DNA of 32,209 bases from an uncultured Candidatus Peribacteria bacterium (GTDB lineage Bacteria > Patescibacteriota > Gracilibacteria > Peribacterales > Peribacteraceae), in the NCBI GenBank assembly GCA_964619805.1, contig CAZUFJ010000018.1, positions 1 through 32,209 on the forward strand, given 5' to 3'. Of this stretch, positions 1 through 28,494 are shown piece by piece (position 1 is the first letter of the stretch; every line of letters starts with the position of its first letter). The notes under the pieces are model-generated. The model had not been told where the DNA came from. It saw only the letters and a program-made list of their open reading frames with translations, and ran no database searches. A program made the position numbers and the translations under genes.

Positions 1-2
1 GT

Positions 3-1502
3 GGTCTCTGCAAGAAGCGAACGCTCACGCAGTTTCCACCGGAGAACGGACAGGTCTTCTACTGCTCTGCGTGTTGGCACAGCGATACGTGGGACGCGCA
101 TGACTATGGTCGAGACATCGATTGGAATCGTCCATTCTTTGGACAGCTCACCGAGCTTCGGCGCGCTACTCCTGCGATTGCATTGAGTGTGCAAGGTGAG
201 TGCCAAAACTCTGATTACATTCATTACGCTGGATCGAGCAAGAACTGTTACCTCATCATGCATGCGGACTTCTGCGAGGATTGTTACTACGGCTACGGGT
301 TCAAGAAGGACCGCTGCTGCGTCGATGGCTTCTACAACCTCCACAGCGAACTCTTGTATGACTGCGTCGACTGTCACAAGTGTTACGGTCTCAAAGGCTG
401 CCAAGATTGTCTCAACTGTTCATCGAGCGCGTTCCTCCGTGACTGTATCGGCTGTAAAGACTGCTTCCTCTGCATGGGGCTCAGGAACAAACAGTATTGC
501 TTTGAGAACGAGGAGCTTTCGCGCTCGGAGTACGAGAAGAAGATGAAGGAGATCAATACGGGATCCTATTCTCAGTACCAAAGTTTCAAAGCACGGAGGA
601 GAGAGCTCGAGAAGTCACACACGTTCAAGGAATTCCAGGGACACAATCTTGAACATTGCAGCGGAAATCACCTCTACAACTGTAAGAACGTACTGGACAG
701 CTTCGACTGCGAGGATGTCGAAGATGCGCGGTACTGCACGCAGCTCGTGCTCGGGTCCAAGAACGTCTATGACGTGTATCAGTACGGTTCCAATCTCCAG
801 AATTCCTATGAGTGCGCGATCTGCGGAGAAAATTCACAGGGCATTCTCTCTGGTATGGAGTGTCATCTCAATTCGTACGGCCTCTCCCACTGTTTCTACA
901 TGGAAGCATCCAAAAACTGCTTCGGCTGCGCGAGCATGCAGCGCGGTTCATACTGCATTCTGAACAAGGAATATTCTAAGGGAGAGTATGAGTCGCTCGT
1001 GCCCAAACTGATCGAGCACATGAAGAAGCACGGTGAATGGGGAGAATTCCTGCCGCTCGGCTCGAGTGAGTTCGGGTACAACAAAACAACGGCACAGATG
1101 TATTACCCGCTCACGAAGACCCAAGCAGAGGAACGTGGATTTGTGTGGGATGACCGAAAAGATGAGCCACCGAAGGCAGACAAAGTCATTGATGCAGACC
1201 AACTCCCCGATGACATTCGCGATATTCCGGACGACATCCTTAACTGGGCGATTCGCTGCGAAGTCACGGGCAGGCCCTTCAAAATCATCAAGCAGGAACT
1301 CGAGTTCTACCGTCAGCAGACGATCCCCGCGCCGCGCCGGAGCCCCGAGCAGCGGCACCTGGATCGTTTCGCACTCAGAAACCCCAGGCAATTCTGGGCT
1401 CGTCACTGTGCAAAATGTACAAAAGAGATCCAGACGACGTACGCTCCAGACCGTCCAGAAATCGTCTACTGTGAATCTTGTTATCTGAAAGAAGTATACT
1501 GA
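3..1502 (+). CDS. Cys-rich zinc-ribbon repeat protein, paralog A (5' partial, open to window edge)
   Basis: Frame 3 has no stop from nt 3. Residues upstream of the listed TTG at 183 (YCSACWHSDTWDAHDYGRDIDWNRPFFGQL) align with WDPLSYGRDVDFTRSFFEQF and WDPLSYGKDFDFSRSFFEQL in ORFs 1509-3215 and 8541-10259, so coding continues off the 5' edge. It has two blocks of dense NCY/DCYY/CxxC repeats. The C-terminal module is DDILNWAIRCE..RPFKIIKQELEFYR..RNPRQFWARHCAKC..YCESCY. Function unknown. Confidence 0.8.
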   Translation, partial: GLCKKRTLTQFPPENGQVFYCSACWHSDTWDAHDYGRDIDWNRPFFGQLTELRRATPAIALSVQGECQNSDYIHYAGSSKNCYLIMHADFCEDCYYGYGFKKDRCCVDGFYNLHSELLYDCVDCHKCYGLKGCQDCLNCSSSAFLRDCIGCKDCFLCMGLRNKQYCFENEELSRSEYEKKMKEINTGSYSQYQSFKARRRELEKSHTFKEFQGHNLEHCSGNHLYNCKNVLDSFDCEDVEDARYCTQLVLGSKNVYDVYQYGSNLQNSYECAICGENSQGILSGMECHLNSYGLSHCFYMEASKNCFGCASMQRGSYCILNKEYSKGEYESLVPKLIEHMKKHGEWGEFLPLGSSEFGYNKTTAQMYYPLTKTQAEERGFVWDDRKDEPPKADKVIDADQLPDDIRDIPDDILNWAIRCEVTGRPFKIIKQELEFYRQQTIPAPRRSPEQRHLDRFALRNPRQFWARHCAKCTKEIQTTYAPDRPEIVYCESCYLKEVY

Positions 1503-1508
1503 CGGTCC

Positions 1509-3215
1509 ATGGGAATGATCTGTGCCAATTCCTGGTGTAAGCGGAGCTTCGATATTGCGGACGATGAAGTCGCTTTTTTGAAGAAGCTGACCTTTACGTT
1601 TGGTGATCGCACCATCGAGATGCCGCTCTCGGATCGGTGTCCTGATTGTCGGACACAAGCGCGTACTGCGCATCGTAATGAGCAGTTCCTCTATAAGACG
1701 CGCTCGAAGTTGTCCGGCAAGGAAATCGTCGCGCTCTATGCGCCAAATCCGGTCGCGGGTAAGGCGCTCCCTGTCTACAGCCAGGACGAATGGAGGAGCG
1801 ACGCGTGGGATCCGCTCTCGTATGGACGCGATGTTGATTTCACACGATCGTTCTTCGAACAATTTGCAGCATTGCAGCACGCGGTCCCGCGCATGGCGCT
1901 CATCACCATTGCGAATGAAAACTCGGATTTCTCGACGGGGACAGGCTACTGCAAAAATTGCTACCTGATCAATTCGTCCGAAAACTGCGAGGATTGTTAC
2001 TATGGAAAATTGCTCCAGAAATGCCGAGACTCGGTGGACTGCAGCTACCTCTATGACTCCGAGCTCTGCTACGAATGCTTCAGTGTCTTCGGGAGCCACA
2101 ATTGCCAGCATCTCTCCTTCAGCCAAGACTGTCAGGATTGCTTCTTCTCCTCCAACCTCAAATCCTGCAAGAACTGCTGCCTCTGCACCAACCTCGATCA
2201 CAAGGAGTACTACTTCCAGAATGAACCGCTCAGGAAAGAAGCATATGAGAAACGCCTGACAGAATTTCGCGGCAGCTTTACGCGCACGCAGCAAATGAAA
2301 GAACTCTGGAAGCGTGTGAGAATTTCCACAGTGAAAAAATACGCGAATATCATGAACTCCGAAGGCTGCACCGGTGATTATATCGAAAATTCGAAGAACT
2401 GTCTGGAGTGTTACGACGTCACGGACAGCCAAGATTGCAGGTCTGTGCAAGTCGGCGTCAATGTGAAGGATAACTATCACTGCTCAAACATGTATCTGAA
2501 ACCCGAGCTCTGCTACGAAACACTCGGTACGATCGAGGTGCACACTGTCGCATTCTGCCTCTACATCTTTCACTCGCAGCGGATGCTCTACTCGGAGTAC
2601 TGCTTCCATTGCAGCGACTGCTTCGGGTGCTCGGGGTTAACGCGCAAGAAGTTCTGCGTTTTCAATAAACAATATTCGAAGGAGGAATACGCATCGCTCG
2701 TCCCGAACATCATCGACCATATGAAAACCCCGTACCAGTCGCCTGCGGGCTCCGGTTCATTCGGCAAGTTCTTTCCTTCAGCCCTTTCGCCCTTCGGCTA
2801 CAACGAAACGCTGGCCTCGGAATATTTCCCCCTTAAGCGAGAGGAAGCGATCGCACGGGGATTCCATTGGCGCGAGAAAGATGCACGAGATTTTTTACCA
2901 CAAAAAGCGCCGGTTCCCGAGAGCATCGCGGAAGTGACGGATCAGTTACTTCAGGAAATATTCTCCTGCGAGGATTGCCGGAAGAATTTCCGCATCATCC
3001 CACAGGAGCTTGCGTTCTATCGTCGAAATTTAATTGCGATTCCGCACATATGCCCCGATTGCCGGAACAACGAGCGCATGCAGCAGCGAAATTCACGCAA
3101 GCTCCACGATCGCAATTGTTCGCATTGCGCGAAGTCGCTCCTCTCCACCTATCACCACGACCGTAAGGAAGTCATCCTCTGTGAAGAATGCTTTAGGTCC
3201 GCATTATACGCGTAG
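1509..3215 (+). CDS. Cys-rich zinc-ribbon repeat protein, paralog B
   Basis: 568-aa ORF starting 6 nt after paralog A. N-terminal CxxC..CPDCR..RNEQFLY module. Two Cys-rich blocks, each ending in a K(K/Q)(F/Y)C.(F/L)N.(Q/E)YS.EEY motif. C-terminal CEDCRKNFRIIPQELAFYR..CPDCR..RNSRKL.DRNCSHC..CEEC module. Clearly homologous to A and to 8541-10259. Confidence 0.85.
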   Translation: MGMICANSWCKRSFDIADDEVAFLKKLTFTFGDRTIEMPLSDRCPDCRTQARTAHRNEQFLYKTRSKLSGKEIVALYAPNPVAGKALPVYSQDEWRSDAWDPLSYGRDVDFTRSFFEQFAALQHAVPRMALITIANENSDFSTGTGYCKNCYLINSSENCEDCYYGKLLQKCRDSVDCSYLYDSELCYECFSVFGSHNCQHLSFSQDCQDCFFSSNLKSCKNCCLCTNLDHKEYYFQNEPLRKEAYEKRLTEFRGSFTRTQQMKELWKRVRISTVKKYANIMNSEGCTGDYIENSKNCLECYDVTDSQDCRSVQVGVNVKDNYHCSNMYLKPELCYETLGTIEVHTVAFCLYIFHSQRMLYSEYCFHCSDCFGCSGLTRKKFCVFNKQYSKEEYASLVPNIIDHMKTPYQSPAGSGSFGKFFPSALSPFGYNETLASEYFPLKREEAIARGFHWREKDARDFLPQKAPVPESIAEVTDQLLQEIFSCEDCRKNFRIIPQELAFYRRNLIAIPHICPDCRNNERMQQRNSRKLHDRNCSHCAKSLLSTYHHDRKEVILCEECFRSALYA

Positions 3216-3271
3216 CCGGTCGCATAAAATCCCCTCATCAAATGGCTTGTTTTAGCGTATAATAAAGGACA

Positions 3272-5287
3272 ATGGCCGCAAGCGCCCTCCGCTATCTGCA
3301 CATCATGATTCCCCAGGGGGAACCCGAGGGGCAAAAGCGCGAATCGAAGTTTCAGGAGCTCCTCATCAACCTTCGCAACACGTTCACGGGGCGCAGGGTG
3401 TCGCTCGAGTATTTCGGCTACGCGCAGTACACGTATTTCTTTCTCGTGATCGAGGAGAGCCTGTTCGAGACGATCGAGGGATTGATCTACGCGACATTCC
3501 CGGAGGCGGAAATCAAAGAGGTGCAGGACTACACGGAGATGTTTGATCCGAAGCGACAGGCGATCGCCGGCGCGGAAATCACGCTCCATCATTCCGATAT
3601 TTACCCGATTAAGACGTTCGACATGTTCGAGGAAGACAGCGCCTCGCGCTTCTTCTCCGTCGTTTCCAAGATCGGCCCCCTCGATCAGGCGTGGGTGCAG
3701 ATCATCGCGGAGCCGCAGGATGACAGCGGATCGTATCATTTCCTTCGCAAGTGGCGGATTCGCATGGCAAATATGCGTCACTTTTTCAGCGTTCGCGACC
3801 GGATGCGCGAGGGCGGCCGCAAAGTCATCAACGCAATGCGGCATACGAAGGCGCATGAGAAAGCGGACGTGAAGCCGTTCACGGTGAGCATCCGTTGCGC
3901 GTACGTGTCGGATACCGACGAGAATGCGCGAAGGAAACTGGAGGCCGTCATCTCCAGCTTCTCGCAGTTCAATGACCGCGATATCAATGAATTTCACGGG
4001 CACGCATTGCATGGGAATGGATTCCTGGATCGGTACCGCGCACGCACGCACGCAACGACCTTTGTTCTGAACGCCAAAGAGGTCGCGACGCTCTACCATT
4101 TCCCAAATACCGATTACGTGTCACACATCGTGCATGTGCTCGCGCGTAAGAGCGACCCGCCGCAGGATCTGCCCCGCATCGGCCAGAGCGCGGTCTCCGG
4201 ATTCGGCGTCACGAACTATCACAACAGCCGCATTCCGTTCGGCATCCGACGCGAGGATCGCCGCCGCCACCTCTACACCGTCGGCAAATCCGGCGTGGGC
4301 AAAAGCAAGTTACTCGAGCTCCTCATCAACGAAGATATCAAGAACGGCGAAGGGTTCGCGGTCTTGGATCCGCACGGAGACTTGGTAGACAACGTGCTCC
4401 GGTTCATCCCGAAAGAACGTATAGACGACGTGGTGCTGTTCGACCCATCCGATACGAACTTTCCGATTGCGTTCAATCCGCTTGAGAAGGTTGATGACGC
4501 CTACAAGATGCAGGTCACGATCGGCTTCATCGATATCTTCAAGAAGCTCTTTGGCGGCAACTGGACGTACCGGTTGGAGCACGTGCTTCGGTACACGACG
4601 CTCGCGCTCCTCGATAGCCCGAATACGACGGTGCTCTCGATCCTCAAAATGTTGACGGACAAAAACTACCGCCAGAAGATCGTCGCACGCATTCAGGATT
4701 CGGTGGTGAAGAGTTTCTGGGTGTCGGAATTCGCAGCATGGTCCGAGAAATTCGATGCAGAGGCGATCACGCCGCTCCTCAACAAGGTCGGCCAGTTCGT
4801 CGCGACGAACATGATCCGCAATATCGTCGGCCAGTCGAAAACGAAATTCGACATTCGGGACATCATGGACCAGAAGAAGATCCTCCTGATGAAAGTTTCG
4901 AAGGGCTTGCTCGGCGAGGAAAATTCCTCGCTCATCGGTTCGATGGTGATCACGAAGCTCTATCAGGCGGCGATGAGCCGCGCCGCGATCGCGGAGGATA
5001 AGCGCACGGATTTTTATTTCTACATCGATGAGTTCCAGAACTTCGCGACCGATACGTTTGCCGAGATCCTCTCGGAGTCCCGTAAGTACCGCCTCTCCCT
5101 CACGATCGCGCACCAGTACATGGGGCAGCTCAAGGATGTCGTGCGCAAGACCGTGTTCGGCAACGTCGGCTCCATCGTGAGCTTCCGCGTCGGCGCGGAG
5201 GATGCGACGATCCTGGAGGGCGAATACAATCCCGTCTTCAAGGAGCGCGACATCATCAACCTGGGCGTCCGCGAGTTCTACATCTAG
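3272..5287 (+). CDS. VirD4/TraD-like (type IV coupling protein family) P-loop ATPase, soluble form, ended by an in-frame TAG
   Basis: Walker A is TVGKSGVGKSKL. Walker B-like is FYFYIDEFQNF. TIAHQYMGQL is typical of TraD/TraG/VirD4-type NTPases. The roughly 330-aa N-terminal region has no obvious TM helices. A TATAAT box at 3258-3263 lies 8 nt before the ATG. The stop TAG at 5285-5287 is followed directly by an in-frame ATG. Confidence 0.85.
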   Translation: MAASALRYLHIMIPQGEPEGQKRESKFQELLINLRNTFTGRRVSLEYFGYAQYTYFFLVIEESLFETIEGLIYATFPEAEIKEVQDYTEMFDPKRQAIAGAEITLHHSDIYPIKTFDMFEEDSASRFFSVVSKIGPLDQAWVQIIAEPQDDSGSYHFLRKWRIRMANMRHFFSVRDRMREGGRKVINAMRHTKAHEKADVKPFTVSIRCAYVSDTDENARRKLEAVISSFSQFNDRDINEFHGHALHGNGFLDRYRARTHATTFVLNAKEVATLYHFPNTDYVSHIVHVLARKSDPPQDLPRIGQSAVSGFGVTNYHNSRIPFGIRREDRRRHLYTVGKSGVGKSKLLELLINEDIKNGEGFAVLDPHGDLVDNVLRFIPKERIDDVVLFDPSDTNFPIAFNPLEKVDDAYKMQVTIGFIDIFKKLFGGNWTYRLEHVLRYTTLALLDSPNTTVLSILKMLTDKNYRQKIVARIQDSVVKSFWVSEFAAWSEKFDAEAITPLLNKVGQFVATNMIRNIVGQSKTKFDIRDIMDQKKILLMKVSKGLLGEENSSLIGSMVITKLYQAAMSRAAIAEDKRTDFYFYIDEFQNFATDTFAEILSESRKYRLSLTIAHQYMGQLKDVVRKTVFGNVGSIVSFRVGAEDATILEGEYNPVFKERDIINLGVREFYI

Positions 5288-5518
5288 ATGTCCGTGAACG
5301 GCGAAGTGCGCGAAGCGTTTTCTGGACGCACGCTCGATGTGCCGCACGTCACGGAGGATCACACGCAGGAGATCATTGCCGCGTCGCGGGCGAAGTATTG
5401 TGAGCCGCGTGCGAATGTAGAGGAGATGCTGAAGCGCTGGGATGAAGCTTCGTCGGCGCCGCCAGACCCGGGTGAAATTGCGGAGATCGAGGAGAAGTTT
5501 GAAGAGCCACTCCTGTAG
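5288..5518 (+). CDS. Detached C-terminal segment of the VirD4/TraD-like ATPase (or a separate 76-aa coupled ORF)
   Basis: Same frame as 3272-5287, with zero spacing (TAGATG). From memory of related proteins, ..EFYI*MSVNGEVREAFSGRTL.. looks like one continuous conserved block. Acidic tail EIAEIEEKFEEPLL. Confidence 0.55.
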   Translation: MSVNGEVREAFSGRTLDVPHVTEDHTQEIIAASRAKYCEPRANVEEMLKRWDEASSAPPDPGEIAEIEEKFEEPLL

Positions 5519-5564
5519 CTATGGGCTGAGAGTTATGAGCTTTGAGCTTTGAGAGTGAATGTAA

Positions 5565-5593
5565 CCCCGCAGCCGGGACGCCGCGTCCCGGAG
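5565..5593 (+). repeat. GC-rich stem-loop element, copy 1 (CCCCGCAGCCGGGACG-CCG-CGTCCCGG)
   Basis: 8-bp stem CCGGGACG/CGTCCCGG (5573-5580 and 5584-5591) with a 3-nt loop, 47 nt downstream of the stop at 5518. Related copies at 8503-8534, 23456-23483 and 24813-24837, all in the same orientation relative to the upstream gene. Confidence 0.8.
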
Positions 5594-5649
5594 CTTGAGC
5601 GTTCGCTATCACGCTTCGCAGTATTTTAATTTGAATGTATTCTCATTGT

Positions 5650-6162
5650 ATGAAAAGGCTTCTCCTCATTGCGGTTCCTCTTCTTATCCTTTCTGCCTGT
5701 GCAAAGAAAGCGGAGAGTGACGTTGGTGTTGGAAAACAGATTGGCAGCCAAACGCTTAAGCAAGTCATGCCGGGTGAGGGTCCCATTGATACACCCGACC
5801 ACGGCAAAGAATTCTGGCTTGGCGTCGGTGCGATGGGCGGGGCACCGGGAATCAATGCCAATGGCGTTACCCAGGCGCATTACCTGGAGGATGGGACGTT
5901 CATTCATACGATCCAACTCAATATCGAGCGTGCCCCGGATGGATCATTCTACGAGGGGTGGCTCGTGAATCCGGAGGGGCTTCGTATCAGTACAGGCCAT
6001 TTGCGTACCCCATTCGGCGATGTTCGCCACCAATTGAAGTACTTGGGAGAGAAGGATCTACGGTTCTACACCCGGGTGGAGGTGACGTTGGAGGCCGATG
6101 ATGGCAATCCTGCAGCCGGAACGATTGTTGCGACGGCGGAACTAACGCCACGCGAACGATAA
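5650..6162 (+). CDS. Putative lipoprotein
   Basis: MKRLLLIAVPLLILSAC has a signal peptide and a lipobox Cys. I prefer the start at ATG 5650 over 5635. The C-terminal part (FYEGWLVNPEG..ISTGHL..VEVTLEADDGNP) faintly resembles RskA-type extracytoplasmic domains. That resemblance is weak. Confidence 0.65.
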   Translation: MKRLLLIAVPLLILSACAKKAESDVGVGKQIGSQTLKQVMPGEGPIDTPDHGKEFWLGVGAMGGAPGINANGVTQAHYLEDGTFIHTIQLNIERAPDGSFYEGWLVNPEGLRISTGHLRTPFGDVRHQLKYLGEKDLRFYTRVEVTLEADDGNPAAGTIVATAELTPRER

Positions 6163-6273
6163 TAAAATTCATTTATGAATTACCGTCAACTTTTCATCGA
6201 ATTGAGCCCTATGCAATGCGGAATTTGTAAGATTTTGTAAGAGTGAAACCACCGAAATTTTGGAATCAGCATC

Positions 6274-6301
6274 AAAAACAGTCCCGTCGCTGCCGCGAGG
6301 G
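6274..6301 (-). terminator. Candidate intrinsic terminator of the 39-codon ORF
   Basis: The minus strand reads CCCTCGCGGCAGCGACGGG (imperfect stem, one bulge) followed by ACTGTTTTTGATG. It lies about 70 nt downstream of the small-ORF stop. Confidence 0.45.
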
Positions 6302-6369
6302 CTTTAGGTGGGGATGCTCCGCCCCGTTCCCTACGTTTCTTGTGGGGCGAACGAACTGCACTCCGCTCC

Positions 6370-6489
6370 CTAGTAATTGATCGTCGGGAGGCTCAGCACC
6401 ATATTCAGCGCGAGGAAGGTGATGAGCAGCGCGTGCGTAAACACGAGCGGGAGTGAAGCACGGTGAGAGATAGGCTTCACGTCGTTCAT
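6370..6489 (-). CDS. Small hydrophobic protein (39 aa), not in the ORF track
   Basis: ATG at 6489-6487. Translation is MNDVKPISHRASLPLVFTHALLITFLALNMVLSLPTINY, ending in TAG. AAGGAG (6501-6496) lies 6 nt upstream of the ATG. One predicted TM helix. It has its own candidate terminator downstream and follows the cimA terminator. Confidence 0.4.
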   Translation of the reverse strand: MNDVKPISHRASLPLVFTHALLITFLALNMVLSLPTINY

Positions 6490-6648
6490 AGTAGGCTCCT
6501 TAGGGGAGCCGCGGCAGTGTACGGATAGCCGCTTTGGTGTCGAGTATATCTTGACTCATTCTGGTGTTCGCAGGGTATCTTCTAAAGGCTTGAAATTGCC
6601 ACTAAATTTCGGTTTAGCCCTGAATTTAGCCACATAGTATTGCATAAC

Positions 6649-6671
6649 ATTGTATAAATAATTTATACAAT
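6649..6671. repeat. AT-rich 23-bp palindrome (ATTGTATAAAT-A-ATTTATACAAT)
   Basis: Perfect 11-bp arms around a single central A. It contains TATAAA/TATACA -10-like hexamers in both orientations. It sits between the cimA terminator and the small-ORF 5' region. Confidence 0.8.
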
Positions 6672-6678
6672 AAACATC

Positions 6679-6716
6679 AAAAGTAGACCTGTGAGTCATT
6701 GCTCAGGTCTACTTTT
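6679..6716 (-). terminator. Intrinsic terminator downstream of cimA
   Basis: Perfect 13-bp inverted repeat AAAAGTAGACCTG / CAGGTCTACTTTT with a 12-nt loop. On the minus strand it is followed by TTTTGATGTTTATT. It starts 15 nt after the cimA stop. Confidence 0.7.
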
Positions 6717-6730
6717 ATGTCTTGGTACTA

Positions 6731-8395
6731 TTACTTGGTCTTGAGGAGCAGATACTCATAACCTTCGCTGACTGCCTGGAAACTGGCCTCGATCATGTCT
6801 GTGCTCACACCTGTTGTCGTCCAGGAATCTACGCCATCGGTGAATGCTACGAACACTTGAACCGATGAAGCAGTTCCTTCATTCGACTGCATTGCTTTTT
6901 CGATGTGAAAGTCGACAAGATTCAGTGAGTTTACGTGCGGGAATTTACTCACGAGTGCTTTTGAAAGAGCATTGGAAAGAGCATCCACAGGTCCGTTGCC
7001 ATTCGCAACTTCGTGATTAAGTGTGGCGCTTCCAAAAACACTTACTTTGATTCTAGCTTCAGCAGGCTCACCTAGCGTGTCTGTCACTGTAGGATTTTTT
7101 ACGATGCGAAACGTTGGTCGAAAAGCCCCTGCCACTTGAAGAGCCAAAAGTTCCAATGATGCCCGGGCACGATCGTATGAAAAGCCCTGCGCTTCCTTCT
7201 CTTTCATTTTTTCGAGGATGGCGCCCTGCACAACTGTTTCTCTTAGTATTTTATCGCGTACTGATTCAGGGATGATTCGACTCGATTGAACTAGTGATCG
7301 CACGTTTGAGAGCCCCGCCTGCTTCGAGCCAACAATTTTTCTTTCATTTCCGAACCAACTGGGGTCGGCAAATTCATATGCTTGCTTGCTTCCGTTTCCA
7401 GTCCTCTCCATCCCTGACGCATGCATGCCACCCTTGTGCGCGAAAGCACGGTCGCCCACAAACGGCTGACCGGGATGACGCCGTTGCCGCATGATTTGCG
7501 CAACATTGCGTGAAGCCCATGTGAGGCGCTTCGCAGGTTCAGGGGAAACCATCTCCATCACCCTTAAGTTCCCGATCGCCTCGCATAAATCGAGATTGCC
7601 TGCTCTTTCTCCTTCTCCATTCCATGTGCCTTGGACATGTCGTGCTCCATTTTTTACTGCAGCAAACATGTTGGCCGTCGCAAATCCACGGTCATTGTGT
7701 GGATGGATGCCGATCATCACCCCCGGAAATTCCTTTGTTATCGCCGCAACTGCATTACCAACCTCATCGGGGTCCGTTCCACCGTTTGTATCACAGAGAA
7801 CAAGCCTTCGTAATGCCTTACCTCCACCATCAAGCGCCGCTCGCAGTGTGAGCAATGCATGCACCGGGTCTTCCCTCCATGCATCAAAAAAATGTTCTGC
7901 ATCATATGTTAAGTCATCGCGATGTTTTGCTAGAAAACCCATTGTTTCAAAAATCATATCGCGATTTTCTCCAGCACTTGCCCGGATAACTTGTTCCACT
8001 TGGAAACGAGAGCTTTTGCCAACAATCGTGAGTGCAGGTGCTTCGCTTGCCAGCAGTGCCTGCAGCCCTTCATCGGTTTCAGCTTGGGATCCACGACGGC
8101 GCGTCATACCGAATGCTGCGAGCGTTGTGAATTTCAATGGGTTGCGAAGGAGCTCTGCAAATGCATCGCGATCAACAGTATTCGATAGGGGATAGCCACC
8201 TTCAACGTACGGGATGCCGAGATCGTCATCCATTCGAGCGATTGCAACTTTGTCACGTGCGTTCATATTCACGCCATCTGCCTGGTCGCCGTCCCGTGGT
8301 GTCACATCGTAGAGTTCTATCGAGTTTTCCATAATGAAGGGGATAAGAAAAAGCCTCTCTGCCTTGTGAGCGAGAGGGGATTTGGACATCAGCAC
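6731..8395 (-). CDS. cimA: Citramalate synthase / 2-isopropylmalate synthase family protein (CimA-type)
   Basis: HMGL-like catalytic motifs: ELYDVTPRDGDQ, GIHPHNDRGFATAN, GTWNGEGERAGNLDL. AFAHKGGMHASG is CimA-like rather than the LeuA-type AFAHESGIH. A C-terminal LeuA-dimerisation-like domain is present. The true start may be the internal MENSIELYDV at 8332. Confidence 0.82.
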   Translation of the reverse strand: MLMSKSPLAHKAERLFLIPFIMENSIELYDVTPRDGDQADGVNMNARDKVAIARMDDDLGIPYVEGGYPLSNTVDRDAFAELLRNPLKFTTLAAFGMTRRRGSQAETDEGLQALLASEAPALTIVGKSSRFQVEQVIRASAGENRDMIFETMGFLAKHRDDLTYDAEHFFDAWREDPVHALLTLRAALDGGGKALRRLVLCDTNGGTDPDEVGNAVAAITKEFPGVMIGIHPHNDRGFATANMFAAVKNGARHVQGTWNGEGERAGNLDLCEAIGNLRVMEMVSPEPAKRLTWASRNVAQIMRQRRHPGQPFVGDRAFAHKGGMHASGMERTGNGSKQAYEFADPSWFGNERKIVGSKQAGLSNVRSLVQSSRIIPESVRDKILRETVVQGAILEKMKEKEAQGFSYDRARASLELLALQVAGAFRPTFRIVKNPTVTDTLGEPAEARIKVSVFGSATLNHEVANGNGPVDALSNALSKALVSKFPHVNSLNLVDFHIEKAMQSNEGTASSVQVFVAFTDGVDSWTTTGVSTDMIEASFQAVSEGYEYLLLKTK

Positions 8396-8502
8396 TTCAC
8401 CTCACGCTCGGGGCGTAATTTCGATAATGCTGATGATGGAGCGGCTTGCTCGCACGCGGGAAGCCTAGGCGCGTCTTTTATGTAGTCAAGAAAATAGGTG
8501 CA

Positions 8503-8534
8503 CCGGGACGCTGCGCCCCTGCTGCGGGGCAGGG
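8503..8534 (-). repeat. GC-rich stem-loop element, copy 2 (diverged)
   Basis: The minus strand reads CCCTGCCCCGCAGCAGGGGCGCAGCGTCCCGG. It shares CCCCGCAGC and GCGTCCCGG with copy 1. It lies just downstream of the stop of 8541-10259. Confidence 0.6.
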
Positions 8535-8540
8535 GATTTG

Positions 8541-10259
8541 CTAATACACTACTTTTTCATAGCAGGATTCGCAGAGGATTTGTTCCTTACGATCGGGAGA
8601 AAATGTCGTTTGGAGATCTTTTTTGCAGTTTGAACACTCTCGATCCCAGAGACGACGGGGGTTCCTGCGCTCCATGCGAAGGCGATGACGTTCGTCGGGG
8701 TGAAGGCGGGGGATTGGGAGCTTCATCTCTCGATAAAACTCCAGTTCTTGCTTGATCAATTTGAATGGTCGTTTTGTAGCCTCGCATTCAATTGCCCAGT
8801 TTAGGATGTCATCTGGAACCTCATCAATAGAGCTTGGCAGTGCGGATGCAGGAATAATTTTTTCGGCTTTTGGTACCTCTTCTTTTTGGGTTCGCCATTT
8901 CCACCCACGCTTTTTTACATCTTTTTCAGTGAGCGGGTAATAATCCTGCGCTAATGACTCGTTATAGTCGTACGGAGCTGTTTCCATTGGGAAAAACTCA
9001 CCCCATTCCTTTGCCTGCCCCGCCGTAGCTCCGTCTGAGCGAAGGGGGGTCTTTCTCATATGCTCAATAATCCGGGGCACCAGCTCTTCATATTCCTCCT
9101 TGGTGTATTGCTTATTCAAAATGCAATAGTTCTTGTGTCTCAGACTGATACAACCGAAGCAATCGCCACATGTATTCATCGTGTCGCAGTAGTGCACGTT
9201 GCGGGATGTCCACGATCCCACGGTAAACAGGCAACCATACGCGCCGTATCCATAGCTTGTGCCTTCGTATCCTAGCTCTGCCTCCGTCGTGTGGCATACA
9301 TCCATCAGGTCCTTCACCTTGAATCCTGTGTACACGAATGCGCAATCTTCGCCGTACGAAAGATCGAAAGAGTGTCGAAGGTTGCGCGAATTTTGCAGGT
9401 AGTCGCCCTCCACGTTTTCACAATTCACGATGAAATGTGCGCGATGAGGTTGGGTACTGAGAAATTTTGCAAATTCATTTTGCATGGAGGCAATGCCTTC
9501 TGCTTCGATGCGCTTGAAGATTTCTTTCTTGCGCCTTGCAAATTCCTCCTCCGATAGCTGCTCGTTCTTGAAATTGAATTTTTTGTTGCGAAGGTTCACC
9601 GAAAACAGACTGTCGCTACATCCTTTGCAATCAAAAAGGAATGCAGACGTGTTGCAATTGGTACAGTTTTGCGAGAACGAGAGCTCGTAACATTTCTCGC
9701 AGTCCACAACTTCGTAGCATCGTTCCGATTCGTAGCAGTTAAGTGCATCAATGCACGATCGCGATTTGATGACCTGGGTGCCATAGTGACAATCCTCATC
9801 GTATTCCGCTGCGAAGAGCAAGTAACAATTTTTGTTGTACCCAGACATATTCACGTACGGAGAATTTTCGTTATTGAGAGCAATGAGTCCGAGTCTCGGC
9901 ACAACTTTTCGTAGCTCATGCAATTGTTCAAAAAATGAACGTGAAAAATCAAAATCTTTTCCATACGAGAGTGGATCCCACACATCGCTATTCCAAATGT
10001 CAGGCGCGTACACGACGAGTTCTTTTTCCGGTGAGTGTGCGGAGATAAAATCTTTTTTCGAAAAATCGCATGTACGGTGATAGAGCTTCCGCTCATTCCT
10101 CCACACAAGCCGGCGTTGCTGCCTGCAATCGGGACAGTGTGTCGGTGGGGGAATCTGCATTTTCTTGCCACCAAAGACAGGTGAAACCTTCGCAAGGAAT
10201 GCCAGATCTTCCTCGGAAATTTCAAACGTACTGCCGCAGGATGCACACACTTTCTCCAT
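8541..10259 (-). CDS. Cys-rich zinc-ribbon repeat protein, paralog C
   Basis: 572-aa ORF. N-terminal CASCGSTFEISEEDLAFL..HCPDCRQQRRLVWRNERKLYHRTC. Two Cys-rich repeat blocks. The C-terminal DDILNWAIECEATKRPFKLIKQELEFYR..RNPRRLWDRECSNC..CESCY is near-identical in pattern to paralog A. Starts 24 nt downstream of tRNA-Pro. Confidence 0.85.
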   Translation of the reverse strand: MEKVCASCGSTFEISEEDLAFLAKVSPVFGGKKMQIPPPTHCPDCRQQRRLVWRNERKLYHRTCDFSKKDFISAHSPEKELVVYAPDIWNSDVWDPLSYGKDFDFSRSFFEQLHELRKVVPRLGLIALNNENSPYVNMSGYNKNCYLLFAAEYDEDCHYGTQVIKSRSCIDALNCYESERCYEVVDCEKCYELSFSQNCTNCNTSAFLFDCKGCSDSLFSVNLRNKKFNFKNEQLSEEEFARRKKEIFKRIEAEGIASMQNEFAKFLSTQPHRAHFIVNCENVEGDYLQNSRNLRHSFDLSYGEDCAFVYTGFKVKDLMDVCHTTEAELGYEGTSYGYGAYGCLFTVGSWTSRNVHYCDTMNTCGDCFGCISLRHKNYCILNKQYTKEEYEELVPRIIEHMRKTPLRSDGATAGQAKEWGEFFPMETAPYDYNESLAQDYYPLTEKDVKKRGWKWRTQKEEVPKAEKIIPASALPSSIDEVPDDILNWAIECEATKRPFKLIKQELEFYREMKLPIPRLHPDERHRLRMERRNPRRLWDRECSNCKKDLQTTFSPDRKEQILCESCYEKVVY

Positions 10260-10283
10260 GCTCGGATTTTACTACGAATTCCT

Positions 10284-10359
10284 TGGTCGGGACGAGAGGA
10301 CTTGAACCTCCGGCCTCACGGTCCCGAACCGTGCGCTCTACCAACTGAGCTACGTCCCG
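10284..10359 (-). tRNA. tRNA-Pro (anticodon CGG), CCA encoded
   Basis: The minus strand reads CGGGACG-TA-GCTC-AGTTGGTA-GAGC-G-CACGG-TTCGGGA-CCGTG-AGGCC-GGAGG-TTCAAGT-CCTCT-CGTCCCG-A-CCA. Full cloverleaf, and the anticodon loop is TT-CGG-GA. Confidence 0.95.
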
Positions 10360-10572
10360 AATACGTTTGGTGATGGAAAGATCAGATCGAGGGCGAGCGT
10401 GCGATTCTTTATGACGCGCCGCAAGCGGCGCTAGGCAACTGAGCTACGTCCCGATACGTTTGGTGATGGAAAGATCAGATCGAGGGCGAGCGTGCGATTC
10501 TTTATGACGCGCCGCAAGCGGCGCTAGGCAACTGAGCTACGTCCCGAATACGTTTGGTGATGGAATGATCAG
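10342..10572. repeat. Tandem repeat, about 2.5 copies of 93-94 bp, containing the 5' 18 nt of tRNA-Pro plus about 75 nt of its upstream leader
   Basis: CAACTGAGCTACGTCCCGA starts at 10342, 10436 and 10529. Copies 1 and 2 are identical except for one A (CCCGAATACG versus CCCGATACG). The third copy diverges after GTGATGGAA near 10565. Each unit carries a GCGCCGC-AA-GCGGCGC hairpin. Confidence 0.95.
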
Positions 10573-10681
10573 GATAGTCCCGATCGCGTGGCATCCTACA
10601 GGAGTATGACAGTGGAGAGCCAGGCGCTTGTGCCGCGATCAGCATTTCGATACGGTACATGGGTTCTTTCCTCCTTCACCT

Positions 10682-11239
10682 ATGCAACGCAAGTACATCT
10701 GGATCGGTATTGCCGTCCTTCTCGGTGTCTGGCTCTGGTCGAGCTACAACGGACTCGTACTGGGGCGAGGCCGAGTGGCTGCATCGTGGGCGCAGGTGGA
10801 GACGCAGTATCAGAGGCGCTTTGATTTGGTGCCCAATCTCGTAAGTACCGTGAAGGGCGCGGCGAATTTTGAGCAGGAGACGCTTCTTCAAGTGACGGAG
10901 GCACGCACGAAGTGGCTTTCGAACTCAAGCCCGACGTCACGGGTGGATGCGGCGCAGCAGCTCGATGGTGCGCTCTCACGCTTACTCGTCACGGTGGAGG
11001 CGTACCCGCAGCTCCAGGCGACGCAGGCATTCCGTGATCTCATGACGCAGCTCGAGGGAACCGAAAACCGCATCGGAACCGCGAGGCGCGATTACAACCT
11101 GGCGATTCTGAGTTACAACTACCGTGTCCGACGGTTCCCGACGAACATCGTTGCGAAGGTGTTTGGCTTCACCGGCGAAAAACTGTTCGGGAGCGTCGAG
11201 GGATCCGAAAATGCGCCGACCGTTGATTTCGGAAGCTGA
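10682..11239 (+). CDS. lemA: LemA family protein
   Basis: N-terminal TM helix (IWIGIAVLLGVWLW). LemA signature QVETQYQRRFDLVPNLVSTVKGAANFEQETL..EAYPQL.A...F..L...LEGTENRI...R.DYN. I prefer the start at ATG 10682 over 10628. Confidence 0.9.
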   Translation: MQRKYIWIGIAVLLGVWLWSSYNGLVLGRGRVAASWAQVETQYQRRFDLVPNLVSTVKGAANFEQETLLQVTEARTKWLSNSSPTSRVDAAQQLDGALSRLLVTVEAYPQLQATQAFRDLMTQLEGTENRIGTARRDYNLAILSYNYRVRRFPTNIVAKVFGFTGEKLFGSVEGSENAPTVDFGS

Positions 11240-12184: not shown

Positions 12185-13174
12185 ATGCGAAAAATAGTTT
12201 TCGTGGGCGCGCTCTTGGTTTTGGCATCCTGCGCGCGGTCGAGCCCGCTACCGCCCGACGATGTCCTTCGCCGAGCATCGCAGGCGACGCAGGATCTTGC
12301 CTCTGCACGCTACGTGATTTCGGGGGAACTTACATCGGGGAAGAACGGCAGCTCCCGCGGTACGGGGAATATTGAGGGAATACTTCAGGATTCGGGGAAA
12401 CAGACGCAGTTCACACTGGTACTCGCAGGATCGTTTGCGAATGAGGGGAGGTCTTATGCTGCGAACGGATCGATGGAAGTGATCGTCGCGTGGAACCAGG
12501 AGCTCTTTCTCTTTTTGAAGGACCTCGTCGTCGAGCCGTCGCACCCGCTCCTCGATCGGGCATCCGTCGAGTTATTTCGTGGTAAATGGTGGAAGATTCC
12601 GGACGCTACGAAGGGGGGCGCCTCGCTTTCCGTGACGCCGGATCCGCGCATGCTGGAGGCGCAGGCAGAGGTCGTGAAGATTGATCGCGACCGTGGGATG
12701 GATACGATTGATGGGAGATCCGTGTATCACTACGACGTTTCGTTGGATTCTGAGAAATTAGTGACCTATATGAAGAGCATTGCTGAGGAGCGTGGCGAAA
12801 CACTATCGGCGGAGGAACTTCGGGAAAAACTCAAGGGTCTGACGGCTACAGGCGAGCTTTGGATCGATGCCGAAACATTCTTTGTCCACCGCCTGACATG
12901 GGACGTGCGCAAGGAGGACGCGGGCGACGGCGATGGATTCCAATTGCAATTCACCGCAAACCTGCGTGAGTTCAATGCAGCGCCCCTCATCACCCCGCCG
13001 AAAGAATTTGAAATGTTCTCGCCCTTCATATTTCTCGGAGGTTCGCAGGTGATGGATGCGGGAGCATCGAATCTGAGCGACAATACAATGAAGGCGCTGC
13101 TACAGGAACTCCAGGAGGGCGAAGCGCTGTTCCAAGGGACGAGTTCCTCCGCCGCGACTTCCGTCACTCCATGA
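12185..13174 (+). CDS. Putative lipoprotein, unknown function
   Basis: MRKIVFVGALLVLASC has a signal peptide and a lipobox. 329-aa ORF whose stop overlaps the next ATG (ATGA at 13171-13174). Confidence 0.7.
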   Translation: MRKIVFVGALLVLASCARSSPLPPDDVLRRASQATQDLASARYVISGELTSGKNGSSRGTGNIEGILQDSGKQTQFTLVLAGSFANEGRSYAANGSMEVIVAWNQELFLFLKDLVVEPSHPLLDRASVELFRGKWWKIPDATKGGASLSVTPDPRMLEAQAEVVKIDRDRGMDTIDGRSVYHYDVSLDSEKLVTYMKSIAEERGETLSAEELREKLKGLTATGELWIDAETFFVHRLTWDVRKEDAGDGDGFQLQFTANLREFNAAPLITPPKEFEMFSPFIFLGGSQVMDAGASNLSDNTMKALLQELQEGEALFQGTSSSAATSVTP

Positions 13175-15222
13175 CGCCAGAAATTTCCGCATCCGGCGAA
13201 GGCCCCGCGGTGGACGGCATGACGCCGCCGGCGCCCGTTGTTCCCCGAGAGCTTCCACCGGAACAGGTGAAGAGTGCGAAGAAGCGGCTGCTCACGGTCG
13301 TCGGCGCGGTCTACGGTCTCTTCGTTCTCTGGCTCCTCGTCCTCCTTGTGCTCCTGCCGAGCCCTACCGGGAGTTTTGAGGGCTTGCCGCTTACGGGAGC
13401 GCTCTCCGCGATGACCGGTGCCGCGGTGCTGGTGCTCGCGGCAACCTTTCTTTTCCTGCGCATCGCGCGCGCCGATGTTTCGATTGCCGTGCGTCGCAGG
13501 AGCACGATCAAGCTCGCGATTGTGTTTGCCCCCGGCATCTTGCTCGGCCTTGCGACGCCCCTCCTCATCACGCGCGAGCCCGCGCTCGCGATCGACATCA
13601 CATATCCGACAAAAAGCGAAGACATGGTGGCGCCGCTTGCAGTGACACTCAGCGCGGAGCGATCAGTGCAACTGCTCGTGAAGCGCGGCCGCAGACCGGT
13701 GCTCTTTACCTGGGATTACGACGGCGACGGCAAACCGAATGAGGAAACCGTCCTGCCCGTGACGACCGCGCTCTACGAGCGTCCAGGTTCCTACGAAACG
13801 GCTGCGCGCGTCACATTAGATGATGGCAGCACGCGCAGGCTCACCCGAAGAGTTGTGATTCCGCGCGCGGTCTTCTCCGTGTCACCAATGCGTCCGACCG
13901 TGGAAACGCCCGTCCGCTTCGGCTTGAGCCATTTGTTCACGCAGCCCGATGATTTGGTCGAAGCGAAGTGGGATTTTGACGGCGACGGCACCGTCGATCA
14001 GGTCGCGACCGTTCCCGATGTCATTCACACGTACTACAGCGTCGGACGCGTGCCCGTTGCTGTCACCGTGACGCTCGCAAATCAAACGCAGGCCACATAC
14101 CAACGCACCGTAACAATCGAGAAACCCGTGCCGCTGCCGTTCCCCGTGACACTCGTGACGGAGCCCAAAAACCTCATCGGACCCTTGCCGTTCGGCGCGG
14201 TGTTTAAAGTCGAGACGGCGGAGCCCATGCGTGAAATTCAGTGGACGTTCGGCGATGGGACCGAGGAGCGCGGAGCGGATCTGAGACGCGTCGGTCACTC
14301 GTTTTCTGCCGTGCAGGTGTATCCCGTCACGGTCCGCGTGCGGTCGGCGAGCGGAGCATTGGCGGAAGTAACGACCCTTGTCCGCGTGACGCAGGATCTT
14401 CCGTTGCCTGATCTCGTGTTCGACGGATCCCCCGAGGTGCAGGGTGATAGCATCCGCGCCGAAGTTCCGGTGACCATACAATTAACTGCGAGGAGTGCAG
14501 TGCCGCTCGTGGAATTTTTGTGGGAGGCACCGAATGCAGCAAATGTTCATGCAACTGGCGCAACAGTGCAGGCTGTGTACCGCAAGGAAGGAACATATTC
14601 CCTGACGCTCGTTGGACAGGATCCGCAGGGCAGATCCACGCGCCGCATGATCACGATCGAGGCGATGCCCCCCTCCGCGGAACCGCAAATCATGATGATG
14701 CCTGCGGGCGGTACGGCCCCGCTCAAGGTGATCTTTGACGCGTCTGCAACATTCATCCCCGCAGGGGAAGCCGTCGCGGGATTCGAGTGGACGTTTGGCG
14801 ACGAAACGCAGGGTCTGAAACCCGAACTCGGTAGTGCGCGCATCGAACATACGTACCAGACTCCCGGCGAGTACATCATCAAGCTGCGGGTTGTCATGGA
14901 ATCCGGCAAAGAATTCTCCACGGAGCGGACGATCGTCGTCCGGAAGCCCGTGCTCAGCGCTTGCATCCTGCCAAGTCGCGATATCCAGAACATTCACTCG
15001 GGGGAGGGAATTCGGTTCGAGCCCTGCACCCTGAAGACTGGCGTCACGTACCTGTGGGACATCCGCAAGGCGGATGAGAAGGATCGCATCCTGGCGCAGA
15101 GCAACGAACCGAAGTATCCGTATCCGTTCGAATCCATGGGAACGTACATTGTCAGGTTGACCGTTCGCGATAGCTTCGGCAATGAGAGTTCCGAAACGCT
15201 CACCATCACCGTACAGCCATGA
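13171..15222 (+). CDS. PKD repeat-containing membrane protein
   Basis: N-terminal hydrophobic helices. At least five PKD-like repeats with the W(D/T)(F/Y)(D/G)DG motif: FTWDYDGDGKPN, AKWDFDGDGTVD, IQWTFGDGTEE, FEWTFGDETQG, YLWDIRKADE. Confidence 0.85.
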   Translation: MTPEISASGEGPAVDGMTPPAPVVPRELPPEQVKSAKKRLLTVVGAVYGLFVLWLLVLLVLLPSPTGSFEGLPLTGALSAMTGAAVLVLAATFLFLRIARADVSIAVRRRSTIKLAIVFAPGILLGLATPLLITREPALAIDITYPTKSEDMVAPLAVTLSAERSVQLLVKRGRRPVLFTWDYDGDGKPNEETVLPVTTALYERPGSYETAARVTLDDGSTRRLTRRVVIPRAVFSVSPMRPTVETPVRFGLSHLFTQPDDLVEAKWDFDGDGTVDQVATVPDVIHTYYSVGRVPVAVTVTLANQTQATYQRTVTIEKPVPLPFPVTLVTEPKNLIGPLPFGAVFKVETAEPMREIQWTFGDGTEERGADLRRVGHSFSAVQVYPVTVRVRSASGALAEVTTLVRVTQDLPLPDLVFDGSPEVQGDSIRAEVPVTIQLTARSAVPLVEFLWEAPNAANVHATGATVQAVYRKEGTYSLTLVGQDPQGRSTRRMITIEAMPPSAEPQIMMMPAGGTAPLKVIFDASATFIPAGEAVAGFEWTFGDETQGLKPELGSARIEHTYQTPGEYIIKLRVVMESGKEFSTERTIVVRKPVLSACILPSRDIQNIHSGEGIRFEPCTLKTGVTYLWDIRKADEKDRILAQSNEPKYPYPFESMGTYIVRLTVRDSFGNESSETLTITVQP

Positions 15223-28448: not shown

Positions 28449-28494
28449 AGAATGTGAAGAGCTGCTATAATAAGAGTATCCCACCCTGTCTGCC

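Follow-up and report, generated by a model that had tools for sequence, protein, structure and literature searches.

A 32,209-nt stretch of DNA from an uncultured Candidatus Peribacteria bacterium (assembly GCA_964619805.1, contig CAZUFJ010000018.1, positions 1 to 32,209; hereafter the window) carries two Cys-rich genes, A and B, upstream of a gene for a VirD4-like ATPase on the same strand. Our favoured reading, which we hold tentatively, is that this region is the Peregrinibacteria form of a conserved module of the Candidate Phyla Radiation (CPR), in which the Cys-rich proteins would act as accessory or adaptor subunits of the ATPase motor. The synteny of the Cys-rich genes with the ATPase is conserved, and the region is not a type IV secretion system (T4SS) locus. 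The module would have three parts: a basic double treble-clef zinc-finger unit (Z), an acidic Cys-rich double repeat (R-R), and a soluble ATPase that joins a DUF8128 domain to a TrwB/VirD4-like domain and has an acidic C-terminus of the form EP[LIM]I. Z (~100 aa) and R-R (~306 aa) are the products of separate genes in most CPR lineages; in Peregrinibacteria they are fused, and the fusion has multiplied into same-strand tandem arrays.

Synteny of the Cys-rich genes with one ATPase subfamily

Within the window, A (positions 3..1502, +; 499 aa read, 7.2% Cys, stop at 1500-1502) is followed after 6 nt by B (1509..3215, +; 6.9% Cys, stop at 3213-3215) and, after a further 56 nt, by the ATPase gene, whose first 671 codons occupy 3272..5287 (+). 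The listing of open reading frames (ORFs) and their translation agree with the original prediction, made from the sequence of the window, on this three-gene layout, on both gaps and on the shared strand. That prediction had also described A and B as two tandem paralogs. The two are indeed paralogous, at 37% identity over their full length, but the description was incomplete: A is open at the 5′ edge of the window, with ~66 N-terminal residues including its first zinc ribbon lying outside (by alignment with B and C), a third paralog, C, had been missed, and relatives hold larger arrays. C is complete (8541..10259, -; 572 aa, 5.2% Cys) and detached from the A-B-ATPase cluster, lying 3 kb from the ATPase on the opposite strand, 25 nt downstream of a tRNA-Pro(cgg) gene (10284-10359, -) and 145 nt upstream of a LeuA/citramalate-synthase-like gene (6731-8395, -). 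A promoter and terminator scan of positions 1-10700 found no terminator-like sites between A, B and the ATPase, though the scan was uninformative in that sites were fewer than in shuffled sequence.

We compared this arrangement with a sample centred on the Cys-rich family, which took one genome per species and comprised the 77 loci (±10 kb) most similar to B out of >555 matching stretches, a choice that biases the sample toward Peregrinibacteria; genes were called with a simple ORF caller and clustered with blast. Family members make up 273 of the 918 ORFs, reach up to 10 copies per 22 kb, and number at least 14 in one metagenome-assembled genome (MAG), spread over two contigs (L050 and L053). 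In all 119 adjacent pairs of Cys-rich genes the two members share a strand, and the median gap between them is 12 nt. Orthologues from different genomes are 50-70% identical, while paralogs are 35-45% identical to each other, which indicates that the paralogs are old. An ATPase gene is present in 25 of the 77 loci, and in 15 of 24 cases the gene immediately upstream of it is a Cys-family gene on the same strand. The idea that a B-type gene is always the paralog nearest the ATPase was inconsistent across loci and was dropped.

Interspersed in 41 of the 77 loci, mostly on the opposite strand, are TrmB-like winged helix-turn-helix (wHTH) proteins of ~255 aa (PF01978; for example L001 6114-6929, -, and L006 7325-8128, +), which are paralogous to each other and may be array-specific regulators; the window itself holds none. 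In the complete curated genome of Ca. Peribacter riflensis, seven genes of 550-570 aa and two that encode wHTH proteins of ~260 aa lie ahead of a 748-aa COG0433 gene (PMC4736985), the same layout as judged by gene lengths and annotations. In one lineage (L126 6074-11515, L141 1737-9105 and L134 6323-11467) two ATPase-family genes enclose one or two Z-R-R-Z genes. The upstream ATPase gene encodes ~450-710 aa without the tail and the downstream one ~500 aa ending in EPMI, EPLI or EPIV; some of these loci also hold a short conserved ORF of ~180 aa.

A second metagenome sample was centred on the ATPase and comprised 80 loci in which ATPase identity ranges from 34% to 84%. Because a first tblastn search with A, B and C under-detected distant genes that hold R-R only, these loci were rescanned with hidden Markov models (HMMs). 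With the single exception of locus L085, the ATPases that have Z or R-R neighbours end in [F/E]xEP[LIM]I. Cys-family neighbours occur at 15 of 20 tail-bearing loci, in contrast to 2 of 55 tail-less ones, L085 among the two (Fisher p = 8e-10). The other CPR ATPases are tail-less and either 900-1,100 aa long or split into ~450 + 560 aa (L085-L157; for example L121 2564-6667 and L108 4943-12511), and they lie downstream of SecD/SecF, a ~350-aa gene that by eye resembles sigma70_r4/HARE-HTH proteins, and often TopA. The link to Cys-family neighbours is thus specific to the ATPase subfamily with the EP[LIM]I tail.

Outside Peregrinibacteria the same parts occur unfused. Genes of ~300 aa that flank some of the ATPases align only to the L1-R1-R2 portion of B, residues 110-405, and a profile built on them finds 1,282 relatives of ~306 aa. 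The few named ones come from Parcubacteria, Levyibacteriota and the 'Patescibacteria group', with one from a bin labelled Actinobacteria, and all are annotated as hypothetical. We looked up six exact proteins on long contigs to check the neighbours of these genes. Each of the six R-R-only genes adjoins a gene for a 94-103-aa protein with both PF13451 and PF23477, the spacing ranging from a 4-nt overlap to a 38-nt gap, and in all five contigs that continue far enough the next gene, or the next but one, encodes an ATPase with DUF8128, DUF87 and TrwB_AAD_bind (747-779 aa). A natural Z-R-R fusion of 409 aa occurs in L168. Since Z and R-R are separate elsewhere beside the same ATPase, the Peregrinibacteria protein is a Rosetta-stone fusion, and as such is evidence that Z and R-R act together. 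The adjacency that the original prediction had offered for checking is accordingly conserved rather than random synteny, being found in Peregrinibacteria, in Ca. P. riflensis and, unfused, in Parcubacteria, Levyibacteriota and other CPR lineages.

The neighbourhoods of the unfused genes hint at DNA metabolism. In two lineages the trio is bordered by genes for RmuC and a UvrD-helicase+PD-(D/E)xK protein (942-978 aa), and in another by RecO_N (L159 5177-6214 and 12181-15117; L161 10350-14267; L166 1865-2401), while TopA flanks the L085 locus. As a separate observation, the C-termini of the stand-alone Z proteins share a conserved DPLPE[VAIL] sequence (L158 1740-2051, L159 7690-7998, and likewise in L163, L166 and L168). 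This ending resembles the EP[LIM]I tail of the ATPase, so that both may dock on a common partner.

A different account of the adjacency gives the Cys-rich proteins a function of their own, unrelated to that of the ATPase, as DNA- or RNA-binding zinc-finger regulators, as nucleoid proteins, or as a thiol, zinc or iron buffer, and has them share its neighbourhood through common regulation or neutral inheritance. The Z modules are predicted basic treble-clef fingers, which are commonly nucleic-acid binders; the curators of the Ca. P. riflensis genome guessed 'transcription factor??' for these genes, and Peribacteria proteomes are unusually rich in Cys (PMC4736985). The 52 of 77 loci with no ATPase within 10 kb, and the TrmB-like regulators scattered through the arrays, also fit such independence. 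We nevertheless consider it unlikely, since the adjacency has persisted through the joining and splitting of genes, through reorientation and between phyla whose gene neighbourhoods are otherwise unrelated, is specific to the tail-bearing subfamily at the significance given above, and spans distances over which neutral synteny is not kept in CPR genomes.

Architecture of the Cys-rich proteins

Judged by their sequences, A and B are true paralogs, and C is 39-42% identical to both; A holds 13 CxxC motifs and B holds 15. Each has orthologues in other genomes: that of A in L001 is 70% identical, those of B in many Peregrinibacteria are 50-65% identical, and that of C in L006, which lies directly upstream of an ATPase gene, is 56% identical. 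The proteins of Peregrinibacteria have a predicted Z-R-R-Z architecture of ~560 aa, in which each Z would be a basic double treble-clef unit and the R blocks are, by composition, acidic with 10-12% Cys. In B, a segment on the N-terminal side (1518..1793, +) precedes R1 (aa 131-253; 1899..2267, +), an acidic block with ~12% Cys that ends in an NxxL(S/R)KEEYEK helix, and R2 (aa 281-401; 2349..2711, +), an internal duplicate of R1 that ends CxxCFGCxGLxRKxYCxxNKQYSKEEY; the C-terminal segment occupies 2964..3212 (+). The two blocks match each other with an hhalign probability of 99.2 (E 2.8e-19).

The Z modules are homologous to the stand-alone treble-clef proteins of PF13451 (zf_Tbcl) and PF23477 (zf_Tbcl_2)/TIGR04272, with the pattern CxxC-x17-CxxC. 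These are described as 'probable' zinc fingers with no known function, whereas in the window such modules are fused to both ends of an R-R core. Individual matches fall short of thresholds: treble-clef Pfam scores are 19.8 bits for A, 21.8 for C and 21.4 for the B fragment against a cut-off of 27, the C-terminus of A matches zf_Tbcl_2/TIGR04272 below the cut-off, and the C-terminal segment of B, searched as an isolated fragment, matches PF13451 at E 2.4e-4, again below it. Compared profile to profile, however, the Z modules match bona fide PF13451 proteins with an hhalign probability of 99.7. All four Cys of the last finger are invariant, the small Z proteins of CPR pass the PF13451 cut-off, and an HMM search of PDB sequences gives a LIM-like match for the 2964..3212 segment of B (E 7e-4).

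No known family was found for the Cys-rich body. Pfam, NCBIfam and PADLOC hold none, only the terminal fingers matching there and below threshold, and the PDB-sequence HMM search and Foldseek searches of the PDB and of the viral models in BFVD return matches at the level of zinc fingers at most. The R block in particular has no Pfam family and no fold match in the PDB. An AlphaFold2 (AF2) model of B built from a 50-sequence alignment is confident as a whole, with a pLDDT of 80.7 and a pTM of 0.85; it has no match in the PDB (best Foldseek E = 5) and zinc-ribbon-level matches only in BFVD. By this model, the fold of the family is not represented in the PDB. A phage profile whose function is not known, phrog_15341, weakly matches R1 of B (E 2e-5). 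Every named homologue is annotated as 'hypothetical protein', and the original prediction's description of the family as uncharacterised stands after these profile and structure checks.

The family is large. It has 2,748 matches at 90% clustering and 5,289 representative clusters at 50% clustering with E ≤ 1e-3, 2,305 of them with E ≤ 1e-30; nearly all of these clusters are 540-600 aa long and match from end to end. No transmembrane (TM) segment and no hydrophobic N-terminus was found in the Cys-rich proteins, and a reading as surface or antigenic-variation proteins was rejected. We also considered the large extracellular Cys-rich proteins that have been tabulated for Peribacteria, of which 18 of 20 are 1,030-3,860 aa long, most have signal peptides, and which are pappalysin- or FG-GAP-like (Table S4 of PMC4736985). 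These come from the same organisms and are also high in Cys, while the window family is ~560 aa, soluble and absent from the text of that paper. Identity with them was rejected because size and architecture differ from 18 of the 20; the two remaining entries, of 580 and 663 aa, were compared by length alone.

One feature of the R blocks stands apart from the zinc fingers. Each block closes in a run of Cys, C-x2-C-x2-C(-x2-C)-x8-C (window 2610-2660, B aa 368-383, with an equivalent site in R1), and the conserved Cys of R2 are residues 371, 374 and 383 of B. This run could be an Fe-S-type rather than a zinc site, and AF2 confidence there is moderate.

The ATPase and its interrupted reading frame

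The gene downstream of B encodes what the original prediction had called a soluble VirD4/TraD-like ATPase without a TM anchor, and motifs, Pfam matches and hydropathy all bear this out. Walker A is GKSGVGKS (aa 338-345, nt 4283-4306), Walker B is DEF (586-588, nt 5027-5035) and an AHQ motif follows (613-615, nt 5108-5116; all +). Three Pfam families score above their cut-offs, T4SS-DNA_transf (PF02534, 33.2 bits against 20.1), TrwB_AAD_bind (PF10412, 29.1 against 20.5) and TraG-D_C (PF12696, 25.1 against 22), while the NCBIfam equivalogs for CD1115-type VirD4 and for TraD fall far below theirs (best NF045973, 59.3 bits against 250). The maximum 19-residue Kyte-Doolittle value is 1.16 for the ATPase and at most 1.31 for 36 orthologues, compared with 1.97-2.10 for membrane controls from the same window, so the ATPase has no TM segment.

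There are 4,687 homologues of the ATPase at E ≤ 1e-10. All 120 listed ones, of ~747 aa, carry PF26449 (DUF8128), along with PF10412, PF01935 (DUF87) and PF02534, and the window protein is placed in PF26449 through its 79% identity to one orthologue, P0121. Those that are named are called 'type IV secretion system DNA-binding domain-containing protein' or 'hypothetical protein'. Further matches are to phrog_5156 (function not known, an 824-position profile; 3272-5284, E 3.6e-66), which means that close homologues are annotated in phage genomes, and, in PADLOC, to mad8 only, in the P-loop region (E 4.6e-10).

The fold was assessed on an AF2 model of P0121 (pLDDT 75). In Foldseek this model matches TrwK/VirB4 over its full length (E 1e-12) and TrwB (1e9s) with E 9e-11 and a target-normalised TM-score of 0.57, and it has a helical, all-alpha insertion between Walker A and Walker B within a TrwB-like fold. 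It also matches DotL (6sz9_A) and Cagbeta-CagZ (8dol), coupling proteins that work with accessory proteins, which supports an adaptor role for the Cys-rich proteins. Weaker matches, with E from 1e-7 to 1e-5, are to HerA of the Sir2-HerA, DUF4297-HerA and TdpAB defence complexes. On this modelling and on its domain matches, the ATPase is predicted to belong to the coupling-protein branch as a soluble protein whose N-terminal domain is DUF8128.

Compared with type IV coupling proteins (T4CPs) such as TrwB of R388, VirD4 and TraD, the window ATPase shares Walker A, Walker B, AHQ and the three Pfam families, and it shares the TrwB fold on the orthologue model. TraD has an acidic C-terminal tail, as is known from work on TraD and TraM, and the ATPase resembles it in this. 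It differs in lacking the N-terminal TM anchor, in place of which it has a ~300-aa DUF8128 N-domain, in that the full-length model aligns best to VirB4/TrwK rather than to TrwB, and in its setting, which is chromosomal, widespread in CPR and free of any T4SS, relaxase or oriT context. Since it has neither a TM anchor nor an association with a T4SS or relaxase, it should not be annotated as a conjugation protein. A survey of 2,918 Patescibacteria genomes counted 5,713 VirD4 homologues, only 148 of them near virB4, and raised possible exaptation (PMC12102498); the window ATPase is evidently one of these orphans. The passages of that paper on T4CP/VirD4 and on Gracilibacteria describe no conserved partner for them, whereas the subfamily ending in EP[LIM]I is tied to Z and R-R.

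A coupling protein beside diversified neighbours also suggests that the Cys-rich proteins are cargo, which the ATPase would pass to the T4SS of Patescibacteria, or to some other machine of the cell envelope, to be delivered to host cells, the arrays being an effector repertoire. T4CPs do select secretion substrates, and diversified multi-copy arrays are typical of such repertoires. CPR bacteria are thought to depend on hosts and to have T4SSs without conjugation parts (PMC12102498), and the gene table of Ca. P. riflensis lists a VirB4-like gene elsewhere in the genome (PMC4736985). Yet a Z gene with one or two R-R genes sits beside the motor across distant CPR phyla, which looks like core machinery rather than variable cargo, and the paralogs are old, each kept as an orthologue at 50-70% identity, so that diversification is not fast. 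Proteins that are probably folded tightly around metal would also be ill suited to export through a T4SS. The ATPase is not anchored in the membrane, and among 157 related loci there is no recurrent T4SS or relaxase family. We therefore think it quite unlikely that they are secreted.

The HerA matches bear on another possibility, a HerA/FtsK-ATPase-type system for defence against phages or plasmids in which the Cys-rich proteins would be sensors or effectors on the ring and the arrays would widen recognition. HerA-NurA, Sir2-HerA and DUF4297-HerA do place a soluble ring ATPase of the same superfamily beside a dedicated scaffolded partner (fold matches E 1e-7 to 1e-3), the counterpart ATPase gene of Ca. 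P. riflensis is assigned to COG0433 (PMC4736985), and the model matches to defence-complex HerA proteins, the mad8 hit, the phage-encoded homologues and a paralog expansion suited to an arms race all point the same way. We have serious doubts about this account. The T4CP matches are stronger than those to HerA, the Z/R-R partner has no recognisable catalytic domain, and no nuclease, Sir2, TIR or other effector domain occurs in the module. Neither the Cys-rich nor the TrmB-like proteins have a PADLOC match beyond generic wHTH similarity. The module lies among housekeeping genes and not in defence islands, and it is near-universal in other CPR lineages at one or two copies, which is atypical of patchy, mobile defence systems.

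The window's copy of the ATPase gene differs from its relatives at one codon. The original prediction had the gene ending at 5518, thereby reading through an in-frame TAG at 5285..5287 (+) that occupies the site of a Lys codon in the relatives. The TAG is immediately followed by a conserved Met codon (TAGATG), which opens a 76-aa ORF (5288..5518, +) that holds the last 76 ATPase codons and the conserved acidic C-terminal tail, ...EEKFEEPLL. The site is AAA or AAG in all 22 readable junctions among the 25 ATPase-carrying loci, where the gene is a single ORF of ~747 aa; relatives continue in frame past the junction (40-72% identical by tblastn), and their FEEPLI tail is invariant. An intact ORF ending in FEEPLI is not present in the window, where the gene is split into 671 + 76 codons, and the TAG separates exactly the EP[LIM]I-type tail region from the motor. 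Recoding of TAG was ruled out, as TAG is an ordinary stop in the window, ending 9 of 24 tabulated ORFs (the internal one of the ATPase counted), and the relatives have Lys.

The TAG is either a nonsense substitution, with re-initiation possible, or an error of assembly or of the MAG consensus. If the substitution is real, the window's motor, deprived of its tail, may be impaired. Taken further, the same TAG suggests that the module is decaying in this genome, the ATPase being a pseudogene and A and B remnants that have lost their functional partner; it removes a conserved tail at a site that is Lys in all relatives, and TAG does serve as a stop in this genome. Against this, the gene is intact but for one substitution and highly conserved, with 79% identity to orthologues, A, B and C are intact ORFs, the conserved Met right after the TAG would permit re-initiation, and a consensus error or minority variant is equally likely in a metagenome-assembled contig. 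Decay is in our estimate very improbable.

Surrounding genes and a proposed role for the module

The best protein matches assign the contig to Candidatus Peregrinibacteria/Peribacteria. The remainder of the window is ordinary chromosome with housekeeping genes, among them the LeuA-like gene and genes for LemA, a TPM-domain protein, TsaD, two GT4 glycosyltransferases, Lgt, RNase HII, a Mur ligase, transketolase, transaldolase and 6PGD, and an Rfam scan of the window finds three tRNAs only. As the original prediction had stated, no relaxase, VirB4, pilin or integrase domain occurs in any scanned ORF of the window, and a conjugative element, an integrative and conjugative element or a T4SS locus was rejected on this ground and on the housekeeping context. 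Elsewhere in the window we observed a PD-(D/E)xK/Cas4-like nuclease by tRNA-Ser (31034-31822, +), an SLH-domain (S-layer) protein (23490-24557, -), a multi-PKD-domain protein (13171-15222, +) and a C39-like peptidase (27672-28496, -). Neither of two further long ORFs, 12185-13174 and 18449-19945, matches a Pfam family. The ~570 nt between convergent lipoprotein and LeuA-like genes (6163-6730) hold no long ORF, no Rfam match and one terminator-like hairpin (6310-6331).

In the mechanism that we favour, the ATPase would be a cytoplasmic ring motor, like TrwB and HerA, that perhaps acts on DNA. The Z/R-R proteins would be its dedicated, metal-stabilised accessory or adaptor subunits, with the R-R core as a scaffold and the basic Z modules binding either nucleic acid or the motor's acidic tail. 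Different paralogs would bring different substrates to the motor or regulate it differently, with TrmB-like control of the alternatives. Such a set would correspond to the adaptors of a type IV coupling complex, though with no genes for a secretion channel close by. The role suggested in the original prediction, in nucleic-acid handling, uptake or defence, likewise has the standing of a hypothesis.

There are precedents for a motor of this class with small dedicated partners. The closest working analogies are type IV coupling complexes and the HerA-partner assemblies. In the Legionella Dot/Icm system DotL works with DotM, DotN, IcmS/IcmW and LvgA, and in H. pylori Cagbeta works with CagZ; some adaptors of this kind bind the C-terminal tail or the all-alpha domain of the motor, and DotN is a zinc protein. 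Both motors are among the fold matches of the ATPase, and the likeness is one of mechanism only, drawn by analogy. The Z/R-R proteins have no similarity in sequence or fold to DotN, IcmS/W, CagZ or TraM, nor to the partners in HerA assemblies (best Foldseek PDB E = 5; LIM-like matches only by PDB-sequence HMM), and the membrane complex of those systems is missing from the window module.

Several findings weigh against the adaptor reading. What the loci show of the putative partnership with the motor is conserved adjacency. Many arrays lie far from any ATPase, as the 52 loci without one within 10 kb illustrate, and five tail-bearing ATPase loci have no Cys-family neighbour in the available flank. 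The ATPase gene is often convergent with the Z/R-R genes (L158, L159, L166 and L168), which means that co-transcription is not general, and the DNA-repair neighbours occur in some lineages only. The R blocks are modelled at a pLDDT of only 55-77; many of their Cys are only 55-90% conserved and C has lost several, so that not every Cys can be a metal ligand. Finally, the window's own ATPase is interrupted by the TAG.

A more specific proposal, which goes beyond the adaptor reading and which we regard as somewhat unlikely, is that the module is an undescribed three-component machine, widespread in CPR, in which a cytoplasmic motor of coupling-protein origin docks Z/R-R adaptors of new fold by its EP[LIM]I tail and processes DNA or nucleoprotein with them, Peregrinibacteria having a dozen or more specialised versions of the fused adaptor under TrmB-like control. 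Competence-acquired DNA or recombination intermediates would be examples of its substrates.

What was already known of these proteins is the ATPase class, as an unexplained orphan, and the Z domain, as a 'probable' finger in Pfam. The R-R domain and the Z/R-R/ATPase module appear to be undescribed, no description of either having been found in the literature searched. Thousands of orphan VirD4-like ATPases have been counted in Patescibacteria/CPR (PMC12102498), and one subfamily of them now has a conserved, dedicated set of partners. In Peregrinibacteria the Cys-rich genes make up a visible share of a genome of ~1.2 Mb, and the module offers an annotation handle for proteins that are all 'hypothetical' today. 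It also makes a hypothesis testable, that of a tail-mediated complex of motor and adaptor, possibly acting on DNA, in a set of proteins widely conserved in the CPR.

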